Assembly: GCA_965248765.1 (NCBI GenBank)
Contig: CBDFKF010000003.1
Span: 653,777-717,776, forward strand
Direction: 5' to 3'
Origin: Alphaproteobacteria bacterium
Lineage (GTDB): Bacteria > Pseudomonadota > Alphaproteobacteria > VGEJ01
DNA length: 64,000 nucleotides
Positions 47,252 through 49,999 of the stretch are shown here, piece by piece. The notes below the pieces were generated by a model, which did not search any database, was not told the origin of the DNA, and saw only the letters and a list, made by a program, of their open reading frames with translations. Each line of letters starts with the position of its first letter. The stretch's first letter is position 1. Both the position numbers and the translations under genes were made by a program.

Positions 47252-48808
47252 ATGCGAATCGGCATCGATGTCGGCGGCACCAACACCGATGCAGCGTTGA
47301 TGGACGGCCTCAAGGTCCTCGCGTCCCACAAGACCCCGACTACCGCCGATGTCAGCACCGGCATCACGCACGCCCTGGAAGCGGTGTTGCGCGACTCCGC
47401 AGCGACGGCCGCCGCCATCGAGGCGGTGATGATCGGCACCACGCACTTCACCAACGCCTTCGTCGAGCGCAAGCGGCTGTTGCCGGTGGGCGCGATCCGG
47501 TTGGCGCTGCCGGCAGCGAGCGGATTGCCGCCACTCACCGACTGGCCGACCGATCTCGCTGATGCCGTGCGCGGTCATATCGCTATGGTCGAAGGCGGCA
47601 ACGAGTACGACGGCGCCGAGATCTCGCCTCTGGACGAGGGCGCGGTACGCACCGCCGCCGAAGACATGCGCACCGAGGGCATCCGGACCGTCGCGGTCTC
47701 TTCGATCTTCTCTCCGGTCAATGCGGGGATGGAGCAGCGCGCGGGCGAGATCGTCCGCGAGGTGCTGCCCGAGGCTGCGGTTTCGCTGTCCAACGAGATC
47801 GGCCGCATCGGCCTGTTGGAGCGCGAGAACGCGGCGATCATGAACGCGAGCCTTGCCGAGCTGGCCGAGCGCGTCGTCAGCTCGTTCCGCGAGGCGCTTG
47901 CCGGGCTTGGTATCGAGGCGCCGTTCTACATCAGTCAAAACGATGGCACGCTGATGAGCGCGGCCTTCGTCGAGCGCTATCCGGTGCTGACCTTTGCTTC
48001 GGGCCCCACCAACTCGATGCGCGGTGCCGCCTTCCTCGCTGGCGCCAAGGACGCGATGGTCGTCGATATCGGCGGCACCACAACCGATGTCGGGATGCTG
48101 ATCAACGGCTTCCCGCGCGAATCGGCGGTCGCGGTGGATATCGGCGGTGTGCGCACCAACTTCCGCATGCCCGACGTGCTGGCGATCGGCCTCGGCGGCG
48201 GCAGCCGGGTGCGCCAGAACGGCGCGCTCACGGTGGGCCCGGACTCGGTGGGCTACGAGCTGACTAAGGAGGCGCTCGTGTTCGGCGGTTCTACAATCAC
48301 CGCGACCGACATCGCCGTTGCGGCGGGTAATGCGGAGATTGGCGAGCGGGCGCGTGTCAGCAATCTGGGCGAGGATCTCGTCGAGCAAGCGGCCGCGATG
48401 ATCCACGACATGCTGGACGAGGCAGTCGACCGGATGAAGACCGCCGCTGGTGACCTGCCGGTGGTGCTCGTCGGCGGCGGCGCGATCCTGATCTCGCGCG
48501 ACATCAAGGGCGCCTCGGAGGTGATCGTTCCTGACCATGCCGGTGTGGCCAACGCGATTGGGGCTGCCATCGCTCAGGCCGGAGGCGAGGTCGACAAGGT
48601 CTACGCCTACGATCAGCTCGGCCGTGAAGGCGCTATCGCGGCAGCTCGTGAGGAAGCGAGCGAGCGCGCCGTCGAAGCGGGCGCCGATCCGGCCACCGTC
48701 GACATCGTGGACATAGAGGAGGTGCCGCTCGCCTATATGCCCGGCGGTTCGTGCCGTGTCCGGGTCAAGGCCGTGGGCGACCTCAGGTACCGCGGGATCG
48801 CGACGTGA
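47252..48808 (+). CDS. short (518 aa) hydantoinase/oxoprolinase-A-like ASKHA ATPase
   Basis: MRIGIDVGGTNTDAALM... and second half VDIGGTTTDVGML. Lacks about 170 aa relative to the full-length HyuA proteins of this window. Confidence 0.8.
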   Translation: MRIGIDVGGTNTDAALMDGLKVLASHKTPTTADVSTGITHALEAVLRDSAATAAAIEAVMIGTTHFTNAFVERKRLLPVGAIRLALPAASGLPPLTDWPTDLADAVRGHIAMVEGGNEYDGAEISPLDEGAVRTAAEDMRTEGIRTVAVSSIFSPVNAGMEQRAGEIVREVLPEAAVSLSNEIGRIGLLERENAAIMNASLAELAERVVSSFREALAGLGIEAPFYISQNDGTLMSAAFVERYPVLTFASGPTNSMRGAAFLAGAKDAMVVDIGGTTTDVGMLINGFPRESAVAVDIGGVRTNFRMPDVLAIGLGGGSRVRQNGALTVGPDSVGYELTKEALVFGGSTITATDIAVAAGNAEIGERARVSNLGEDLVEQAAAMIHDMLDEAVDRMKTAAGDLPVVLVGGGAILISRDIKGASEVIVPDHAGVANAIGAAIAQAGGEVDKVYAYDQLGREGAIAAAREEASERAVEAGADPATVDIVDIEEVPLAYMPGGSCRVRVKAVGDLRYRGIAT

Positions 48809-49893
48809 GGATCGGCCTCGAAGATCTGGAGGACTTTGCGCGCGGGGCAGCCTTCCTCGGCACCGGCGGTGGCGGCGATCCCTATATCGGACGGCTGACG
48901 GTGGAAAACGTGCTTCGAGCCGGACGCGACGTGGAGATAATTGACGCCGATGCCGTCCCCGACGATGCGCTCGTGATCCCCACCTGCATGATGGGAGCGC
49001 CGACCGTGTTCATCGAAAAGCTCCTGCGTGGCGACGAGACCAGCCGCGCTCTGCGCCGCCTCGAGGAACATCTGGGCCGGAAAGCGTTCGCCACCATGCC
49101 GATCGAGGCCGGCGGCCTCAATTCCACGATCCCGCTGGTCGTTGGCGCCCAGCTTGGTCTCCCGGTCGTCGATGCCGATGGCATGGGCCGCGCCTTCCCG
49201 GAGCTGCAGATGGTGACCTTCAGCGTCTACGGCATCCCGTGCTCGCCGCTGACCATCATCGACGAGCATGGCGAGTGCGTGATCGTCGAGGCGCGCAACA
49301 ACCACGCCTCCGAGTGGCTGGCGCGGGTGGTTTGCACGCGCATGGGCGGCGCCGCCCACGTCGCGCTCTATCCCATGAGTGGCGCTGACCTCAAACGCGC
49401 CGGCATTCGCGGCACCATGTCAGTGGCGCTCGAGATCGGCCGTGCGATCCGCCGCGCCCGCGAACAGGCGAACGATGTCTTCAATGCGCTGATCGAGTGC
49501 CTACGCGGCACTGATGGCTACGACTTCGCCAAGGTGATCTTCGACGGCAAGGTCGTCGATTTGCGGCGCGAGACGACGCGCGGCTGGGCCATCGGCTACG
49601 CGACCATCGAGGGCTTTGGTGAGTTCTCGGGCAATATGGAGATCACTTTTCGCAATGAGCACCTGATGGCCCGCCACGACGGGGTGGTTAAGGCGATCGT
49701 GCCGGATCTGATCTGCATCCTCGATCGCGAGACCGCCGAGCCCATCACCACCGAGGGGCTGCGCTATGGCCAGCGGGTGAAGGTGATGGGAGTGCGTGTG
49801 CCCGACATCATGCGCACGCGCGAGGCGATCGCGATTTTCGGGCCGGCGGGCTTTCAAATCGACGAGCCGTTCCGCCCTGTCGAGGAGCTCTGA
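48805..49893 (+). CDS. DUF917-family protein (partner of short HyuA-like proteins); GTG start overlapping the upstream stop
   Basis: About 362 aa, [31 protein letters not shown]... Assigned to DUF917 by recollection of the conserved HyuA-like/DUF917 gene pair. Confidence 0.55.
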
Positions 49894-49922
49894 GCCCGCA
49901 GCCCCCAGGTCATTGAGAAGAT

Positions 49923-49999
49923 TGGCGCACCCGGCGAGATTCGAACTCACGACCTCTGCCTTCGGAGGGCAGCGCTCTATCCAGCTGAGCTACGGGTGC
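49923..49999 (-). tRNA. tRNA-Arg (anticodon CCG)
   Basis: 77-nt cloverleaf on the minus strand: GCACCCG-TA-GCTC-AGCTGGATA-GAGC-G-CTGCC-CTCCGAA-GGCAG-AGGTC-GTGAG-TTCGAAT-CTCGC-CGGGTGC-G-CCA. Near-identical in the D and anticodon arms to E. coli tRNA-Arg(CCG) as recalled. Coordinates may be off by 1-2. Confidence 0.85.

Follow-up and report, generated by a model that had tools for sequence, protein, structure and literature searches.

A short HyuA-type ATPase gene coupled to a DUF917 gene beside tRNA-Arg(CCG): a candidate two-subunit enzyme for ATP-driven heterocycle cleavage

The DNA considered here is a stretch of 64,000 nucleotides (nt) from an alphaproteobacterial assembly (GCA_965248765.1, contig CBDFKF010000003.1), which we refer to as the window. 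It carries two overlapping genes on the forward strand, the first encoding a short HyuA-like protein (A) and the second a two-domain protein of the family long known as DUF917 (B), followed closely by a tRNA-Arg(CCG) gene (Table 1). A first-pass annotation, made from the sequence alone, had proposed that A and B form a two-component enzyme that operates without the usual HyuB partner, and had drawn attention to the tRNA gene as a classical integration site for genomic islands. We followed up both proposals with profile and structure comparisons and with an analysis of the same gene pair in other genomes and in metagenomes.

Table 1. Features of the A-B locus, in coordinates of the window
Feature	Position	Strand	Details and evidence
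Shine-Dalgarno-like GGGGAGG	47240..47246	+	5 nt ahead of the ATG of open reading frame (ORF) A; read from sequence
ORF A, short HyuA-like ASKHA ATPase	47252..48808	+	518 amino acids (aa), ATG start; Pfam, BLASTP, AlphaFold, PDB matches
GTGA overlap, B start on A stop	48805..48808	+	Sequence; same 4-nt overlap called in sister contigs
ORF B, two-domain DUF917 / S-Me-THD-like protein	48805..49893	+	362 aa, GTG start; Pfam, NCBIfam, PDB, AlphaFold
tRNA-Arg(CCG)	49923..49999	-	ARAGORN, Rfam; 3' end 29 nt past B stop

The two proteins and their junction

Pfam identified two HyuA domains in A, namely Hydant_A_N (residues 2-171, E value 1e-39, 136.6 bits against a gathering cut-off of 25.2) and Hydantoinase_A (residues 191-363, E value 5e-30, 105.3 bits against a cut-off of 22.9), the latter profile being covered only over positions 1-177 of 291. 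Hydant_A_C, which is present in all four full-length HyuA proteins of the window, had no Pfam match in A. BLASTP aligned residues 1-438 of A with residues 2-488 of the 691-aa HyuA encoded at 53200-55275, the alignment ending there although A runs to residue 518, and A is 173 residues shorter than that protein, in agreement with the first-pass estimate of about 170 missing residues.

The loss can be located on the AlphaFold model of A (predicted local distance difference test, pLDDT, 82). In the HyuA-type subunit CapA the ASKHA core comprises residues 1-84 and 242-494, an alpha/beta insert residues 85-241, an alpha+beta domain residues 495-610, and a barrel residues 623-696 (PMC8453981). The model of A retains a complete but trimmed ASKHA core, the alpha/beta insert, and a long helix (residues 374-395); the CapA-type alpha+beta domain and barrel are absent, and A therefore also lacks the CapA omega loop. 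Hydant_A_C is replaced by a beta-alpha-beta-beta module (residues 442-511) that makes up most of the last 80 or so residues, a segment that has no counterpart in the C-terminal part of canonical HyuA, which spans about 200 residues.

When the model was compared with the PDB by Foldseek, the best matches were HyuA-type subunits (9h03, 5svc, 5l9w and 6yra; E values 1e-22 to 1e-28, query template modelling score, TMq, about 0.7), with other ASKHA proteins such as sugar kinases, PilM and dehydratase activators far behind. By sequence the closest solved relatives were N-methylhydantoinase (7hk5, 9h03), CapA (6yra), and the HyuA-type subunits of acetophenone and acetone carboxylases. Residues D11, T15, D18, K32, P272, D295, G298, T299 and D302 of CapA align with D6, T10, D13, K27, P252, D272, G275, T276 and D279 of A, each of which is invariant among 24 homologues, and the D11A and D295A substitutions in CapA lower product formation (PMC8453981). 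Most probably, A still works as a subunit that binds ATP and transfers phosphoryl groups, and has lost elements which canonical HyuA partly uses to hold HyuB. Because its homologues are of uniform length (513-520 aa), the short HyuA is a stable family and not a truncation. In one relative of 75% identity (L083) the gene call splits the short HyuA at 8447-9996 into ORFs of 123 and 393 aa, which is a frameshift or an assembly error of that metagenome-assembled genome.

A mechanical ORF listing starts B at 48751, which would give 380 aa. We instead chose the GTG at 48805, a start that is matched by all 20 homologues compared, and the resulting length, together with the 4-nt overlap with A, is also found in the gene calls of contigs 99% identical to the window. 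The junction reads ACG-TGA, with the GTG at 48805-48807, and the overlap suggests translational coupling of the two genes, as had been proposed at the first pass along with a second protein of about this size.

Both halves of B scored far above the Pfam cut-off of 27 bits, S-Me-THD_N (PF06032, formerly DUF917) with 209.8 bits (E value 3e-62) and S-Me-THD_C (PF20906) with 216.4 bits (E value 3e-64), so that the assignment to DUF917, originally made from an 11-residue N-terminal motif (B residues 19-29), was borne out. The family is a large one, with 5146 representatives at 50% identity when an E value of ≤ 1e-3 is allowed and 1268 at ≤ 1e-30. The best NCBIfam matches of B were the two desulfurase equivalogs, S-methyl thiohydantoin desulfurase (NF058532, 100.5 bits against a cut-off of 450) and thiohydantoin desulfurase (NF058529, 88.1 bits against a cut-off of 440); since these scores lie far under the cut-offs, B is a distant relative of the named desulfurases and not their orthologue. 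The AlphaFold model of B (pLDDT 86) superimposed on 2o3i with a TM-score of 0.80 (Foldseek E value 9e-19, 26% identity), and the PDB held no further match to it. The possibility that 2o3i is itself a thiohydantoin desulfurase orthologue was ruled out by its score of 58 bits.

Conservation was assessed with 64 B-type sequences, 48 paralogue sequences from related loci, and 2o3i. A polar core consisting of E101, D123/D125, R129, E170, R174, N284, E285 and D301 (B numbering), together with a GxGGGG loop (GTGGGG in B, residues 19-24), is kept family-wide, whereas E71, K72, N106, K249 and R255 are kept in the clade linked to short HyuA and not in 2o3i.

A diverged HyuB as the origin of DUF917 was ruled out by hhalign, which returned a probability of 0.3%. 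A Gly-rich G-D-P motif appears in both families, as GGGG[Y/F/H]GDP at the end of six of the eight HyuB proteins of the window (for example, residues 546-556 of the protein encoded at 51419-53251) and as GTGGGGDPY at the start of DUF917 (B residues 19-27); the apparent likeness is too short to show homology.

Conservation and gene context of the pair

To follow the pair across taxa, we scanned one genome per species and obtained 80 loci with a relative of B of 49-62% identity, in which A was located by tblastn. These 80 loci yielded 76 adjacencies in which a short HyuA lies directly upstream of DUF917 on the same strand, the sources being Alpha- and Gammaproteobacteria, Actinomycetota, Chloroflexota, Myxococcota, Binatia and Dormiibacterota; the exceptions were contig ends (L002, L014) or had the Chloroflexi layout described below. 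The estimated distance from the stop of A to the start of DUF917 was mostly between -14 and +50 nt, with 15 overlaps. A metagenome set of 80 loci was collected by scanning with an alignment of A, and among the 74 that do not end too soon to judge (6 do), DUF917 is next to A in 71, directly downstream in 62 and directly upstream in 9. The other three have no DUF917 within 4 kb of A, and one of them, L103, shows an A-racemase-Opp layout that in L006 continues to DUF917. HyuB is absent from 77 of the 80 genome loci, and in the three where it occurs within 8 kb it stands each time beside a full-length HyuA of its own.

The statement in the first-pass annotation that DUF917 recurs beside HyuA-like genes therefore holds in both directions, and the window copy, with a HyuA of about 515 aa devoid of Hydant_A_C, a common strand, and a 4-nt overlap, is an ordinary, intact member of a widespread pair. 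The pairing itself is already visible in annotation, and specialists may know the association from databases. Published tables contain a matching trio for Firmicutes. In Clostridioides difficile the expression of CDR20291_1615-1617, encoding a permease, a DUF917 protein and a hydantoinase, changes together (PMC12915319), and in Lacticaseibacillus rhamnosus the three corresponding proteins, the permease being a cytosine permease, have consecutive accessions (PMC7513527).

Natural fusions of the two proteins also occur. The best 150 family representatives include about 18 candidates, with lengths of 920-1070 aa (one has 2715 aa) and the DUF917 part at residues ~600-985, and all five that were tested contain Hydant_A_N, Hydantoinase_A (from profile position 1 to ~150-200), S-Me-THD_N and S-Me-THD_C, the order of the modules being that of the A and B genes. 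The fusions, of which Anaeramoeba KAJ5078435.1 is an example, come from the protists Anaeramoeba ignava and Ancoracysta twista and from two Haliotis species (chromosome-scale records). Residues 1-511 of A align with residues 2-522 of the Anaeramoeba protein at 44% identity, and because the alignment has this span the fused module is a complete short HyuA, including its special C-terminus. The 2715-aa protein, P0488, encoded on a contig of 203,900 bp, has the short-HyuA::DUF917 portion at residues 16-956 followed by NB-ARC and TPR domains, and is either a protein resembling nucleotide-binding leucine-rich-repeat (NLR) receptors that begins with an enzymatic module or the product of merging gene models.

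Given the near-obligate adjacency in both directions, the translational coupling, and the fusion in the same order, the functional coupling of A and B is about as secure as comparative genomics allows, and we consider it highly likely that they constitute one functional unit. The proposal of a two-component system without HyuB agrees with the scarcity of HyuB at these loci, with the A::B fusions, and with the missing CapA-type C-terminal domains; that the system is an enzyme is what we infer.

Most other genomes have the pair within a small uptake operon, of which it forms the catabolic core. In a gene call filtered by G+C content at third codon positions (GC3), a CodB-like NCS1 permease, which scores 198 bits against the cytosine permease model (cut-off 326), was present in 42 of the 80 genome loci and was the immediate upstream neighbour of A in 30 of the 62 for which that call recovered A. 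The other recurrent neighbours were PucR (19 loci) and LuxR/MalT (19) regulators, Asp/Glu/hydantoin racemases (15), TonB-dependent receptors (13), and ABC transporters (12-16). The recurrence of a racemase and of a nucleobase-type permease suggests that the substrate belongs to the small, chiral N-heterocycles of the type of hydantoins, dihydropyrimidines or diketopiperazines.

Many of these operons combine one A with two or three DUF917 paralogues that are 25-48% identical to B (for example, L001 8001-10189, L018 6937-9074, and L047), in the order A-B-b in Alphaproteobacteria and A-b-B-b in Actinomycetota. The polar core is kept in all of the paralogues, which hints at hetero-oligomeric DUF917 assemblies. 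A different layout was found in Chloroflexi/Thermomicrobiales (L002 27-6741, L006 383-9969, L055 2487-5305, L070 564-6753), where two DUF917 genes are accompanied by a nitroreductase/DUF6092 pair, an Opp-type transporter, a hydantoin racemase, amidohydrolases and an M20 peptidase, and the short HyuA is distant or absent. The nitroreductase and DUF6092 are of the cyclodipeptide-oxidase type. This layout fits cyclic dipeptide or hydantoin substrates, and a preprint on cyclodipeptide oxidase reports DUF917 and hydantoin racemases to be enriched in such clusters and calls them uncharacterised.

In the window the pair is preceded by a divergent gene for a PIG3-type quinone oxidoreductase-like protein (45964-46998) and followed, beyond the tRNA, by a convergent pyridoxal phosphate (PLP)-dependent decarboxylase gene. 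Rfam gave no riboswitch or other element near the pair, and neither a consensus promoter nor a meaningful terminator was found at it. In the nearest relatives outside the species (75-78% identity) the pair has quite different flanks; a PLP decarboxylase in L083 and a zinc-dependent alcohol dehydrogenase in L081, which were considered as possible syntenic neighbours, proved to be non-orthologous (29% and 26% identity).

A proposed reaction and its alternatives

HyuA/HyuB enzymes are the textbook example of the ATP-spending opening of thermodynamically stable lactams such as 5-oxoproline, N-methylhydantoin and caprolactam. The A-type subunit binds ATP and is believed to activate the substrate in its lactim form, most simply by phosphorylation; a tunnel then leads the activated species to the metal site in the B-type subunit for hydrolysis, and an endergonic ring opening becomes feasible in this way (PMC8453981). 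By analogy with these characterised relatives, A would bind ATP and phosphorylate the lactim (enol) tautomer of the carbonyl of a cyclic amide or ureide, and B, in the place of HyuB, would receive the activated intermediate and carry out an addition-elimination or a ring opening, the net result being ATP-driven cleavage of a stable N-heterocycle, for example a hydantoin, a dihydropyrimidine or a diketopiperazine. Formation of a complex, phosphorylation of the substrate, hydrolytic ring opening by B, and the class of the substrate are all steps that we infer, and to the full scheme, in which A and B would be the two subunits of such an enzyme with DUF917 replacing HyuB, we give a chance that is even or marginally better.

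The known chemistry of the B family lends the scheme a rationale. Desulfurases swap a sulfur substituent at a hydantoin-type ring carbon for oxygen, an addition-elimination in which the leaving group is a good one, and a phosphorylated lactim would offer a leaving group equivalent to that sulfur, which would provide a chemically coherent reason for the recruitment of an ATPase to the DUF917 fold. It is conceivable, although we would rate it somewhat below an even chance, that DUF917 proteins in general perform addition-elimination at a ring carbon, the leaving group being sulfide or methanethiolate in the stand-alone desulfurases and a phosphate installed by the ATPase in the paired proteins. 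The latter would then represent a distinct class of ATP-dependent enzymes that cleave heterocycles, very widespread across bacterial phyla and present as single-chain fusions in protists and molluscs, in which a fold unrelated to HyuB takes over a phosphorylated lactim from a trimmed HyuA.

Several observations weigh against the ATP-driven two-subunit scheme. The conservation analysis revealed no conserved His or Cys in the B family, and no metal site like the Zn site of CapB, and the chemistry of B may therefore differ from that of HyuB. Thiohydantoin desulfurases are not known to need ATP or a partner, and given that the branch of the family represented by CV_3147 (described below) also lacks HyuA, B has no inherent need of an ATPase. 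Beside the pair in the window there is neither a transporter nor a racemase or regulator gene, so nothing local points to a substrate for this copy, and the searchable literature contained no biochemical data on any short-HyuA/DUF917 pair.

Furthermore, fusion and adjacency would also agree with two consecutive steps of a pathway that involve no complex, since these features and translational coupling are also typical of consecutive pathway enzymes. A would in that case be a free small-molecule kinase, with B acting on the phosphorylated product or on a precursor and no channelling between them; DUF917 does work without HyuA in other branches, and some operons contain a single A with two or three DUF917 paralogues. 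On the other hand, all characterised relatives of HyuA work in heteromeric complexes and pass on unstable activated intermediates (PMC8453981), A retains the long helix through which CapA touches its partner, and the A-to-B order and tight overlap are very uniform, for which reasons we regard independent consecutive enzymes as rather unlikely.

A might instead be an ATP-dependent activase or chaperone that repairs or loads the active site of B and does not itself act on the substrate, comparable to MutL for glutamate mutase, the diol-dehydratase reactivase, or BcrAD/BadFG. This idea is in line with a weak Pfam match of A to MutL (32.7 bits, residues 251-295) and with weak ones of its homologues to BcrAD_BadFG, as well as with distant structural matches that include dehydratase activators and reactivases, but the Pfam matches are confined to the shared ASKHA phosphate-2 motif and the structural ones have Foldseek E values of only 1e-5 to 1e-7, many orders of magnitude weaker than those noted above for the HyuA proteins that phosphorylate their substrates. 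In addition, P252 and D279, which putatively belong to the acceptor site, do not vary, and homologues of A share no pattern of Cys residues that could bind a bridging Fe-S cluster, so that a role as activase is improbable.

The name of the Pfam family, taken from S-Me-THD, and the rank of the two equivalogs as the top NCBIfam matches could suggest that B is a (S-methyl) thiohydantoin desulfurase of ergothioneine catabolism to which A is an accessory. The bit scores of B against both equivalogs argue otherwise, and no recurrent neighbour cluster in the 80 loci matches ergothionase or a urocanase-like hydratase, the recurrent neighbours being permeases, regulators and racemases instead; we consider this assignment very unlikely.

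The position of the pair next to the tRNA, with only 29 nt between that gene and B, and the differing flanks in the 75-78% relatives would also be expected if the pair were cargo of an island inserted at tRNA-Arg(CCG). Three contigs that are 99.1-99.3% identical to the window (L086, L087 and L088) were recovered and compared with it by blastn. L087 is colinear with it over 37403-58809, through an intact tRNA, whereas L086 and L088 are colinear only to 49972 and so keep just the 3' 50 nt of the tRNA (49923-49972). In the region of the attachment site (L086 11119-12617; L088 12671-14178) the latter two share the same new junction, with a tyrosine integrase gene about 150 nt further on, and they then carry differing mobile genes, IS21-type genes in one strain and ThiF-like, HTH/Peptidase_M78 and DUF3368 genes in the other; no intact tRNA was found in the following 10 kb of L086. 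Because these sister strains keep the 3' 50 nt of the tRNA next to an integrase, the tRNA-Arg(CCG) gene is a live attachment site, which is empty in the window and in L087.

The variable DNA, however, begins at 49972 and, as seen from the pair, lies beyond the tRNA, and the pair together with at least 10 kb to its left is colinear in all four near-identical strains, so the pair belongs to the backbone and is not island cargo. The window itself contains no integrase and no G+C shift, and the tRNA 3' end does not recur in it even when up to three mismatches are allowed. The early suspicion about the tRNA was thus correct as to its use as an integration site, but the island lies beyond the tRNA and the pair on the invariant flank, and the direct repeat that was to delimit an island did not materialise in the window; that the pair was delivered by an island at this site is accordingly most improbable.

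It is likewise hardly credible that A serves surplus HyuB proteins of this genome, as the excess of HyuB in the window (eight, against four full-length HyuA) and its HyuB-HyuA-HyuB triads might suggest, given that A lacks the domain bearing the HyuB-contacting omega loop of CapA, is coupled to B and not to HyuB, and belongs to a family unlinked to HyuB across genomes, while the triads fit multi-subunit enzymes like acetone or acetophenone carboxylase, one of them having Acetone_carb_G beside it.

These HyuA/HyuB genes lie at 22076-29255, 35742-41582, 51419-55275 and 57564-63316, the full-length HyuA proteins having 681-744 aa. Most of the genes form HyuB-HyuA-HyuB(-HyuB) triads, and there is also a single simple HyuA-HyuB pair. 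One of the sets is adjoined by genes for an M19 dipeptidase and an Opp/Dpp-type ABC transporter (29266-35833). The triad at 57564-63316 is adjoined by a 92-aa ORF (57242-57520, reverse strand) corresponding to the gene called Acetone_carb_G in L087, which suggests an enzyme like acetone or acetophenone carboxylase. A ninth HyuB-like gene (4719-6606, reverse strand) is represented by two overlapping ORFs in different frames (5554-6606 and 4719-5615), and could reflect a frameshift, a pseudogene or a rearrangement; a segment 97% identical to it at L086 14596-17366 contains a single Hydantoinase_B gene of 596 aa, amid the mobile genes past the integrase and flanked by IS21- and IS1595-type transposases.

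For the window the result is a modest one, a single pair in a region unusually rich in HyuA/HyuB paralogues. More broadly, the evidence indicates that the HyuA ATPase module has a second partner, unrelated to HyuB, that is conserved from Firmicutes to abalone, and the testable hypothesis of a coupled ATPase, a DUF917 cleaving subunit and import by a CodB-like permease makes a large uncharacterised family approachable. If DUF917 proteins in general do perform addition-elimination at a ring carbon, as considered above, this would supply a mechanism for a family of more than 5000 sequence clusters and an unrecognised route for the use of hydantoin, pyrimidine or diketopiperazine-type nitrogen sources. 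The family might also yield new biocatalysts for the hydrolysis of lactams or hydantoins.

Comparison with known systems

The only solved relative of B is CV_3147 of Chromobacterium violaceum (2o3i), a structural genomics entry that was labelled a hypothetical protein on deposition. Its fold is that of B, with which it shares GxGGGG, DADGxGRAxP, E101, E170, R174, N284-E285 and D301, but it is about 400 aa long and has no HyuA, being coupled instead to an Asp/Glu/hydantoin racemase, with a sigma-54-activator-like AAA+ gene ahead. In two loci of this branch (L084 3684-7934 and L085 3686-7943) DUF917 overlaps the downstream racemase gene, and the gene ahead encodes a protein of about 770 aa with a Sigma54_activat AAA+ domain and TPR repeats that overlaps DUF917 in L084 and ends 18 nt upstream of it in L085. 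DUF917 proteins of this branch may therefore have a different ATPase as their neighbour.

The thiohydantoin and S-methyl thiohydantoin desulfurases have the same two-domain family architecture as B and are the only DUF917 members with a named activity. Unlike them, B is obligatorily paired with an ATPase. On the side of A, the HyuA-type nucleotide-binding subunits of acetone and acetophenone carboxylases (5svc, 5m45, 5l9w) are among its best structural matches, and these enzymes also activate their substrate with ATP and then hand it to another subunit. They differ in possessing HyuB-type and small gamma subunits, neither of which is linked to the short HyuA.

The closest parallel is with the HyuA/HyuB lactamases, as represented by N-methylhydantoinase (9h03, 7hk5), CapAB (6yra) and 5-oxoprolinase. 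With these A shares Hydant_A_N, the insert, the ASKHA core and the residues of the ATP site, and it is likewise encoded by the first gene of a tightly coupled two-gene unit; the proposed logic would also be alike, with a stable cyclic amide activated by ATP and then cleaved in the partner. In contrast to them, A lacks Hydant_A_C and is about 170 residues shorter, and its partner is a DUF917 protein with neither detectable homology to HyuB nor the His/Asp Zn site of CapB. Judged by this analogy, the system would work like a HyuA/HyuB enzyme in which the second subunit has been exchanged for an unrelated fold.

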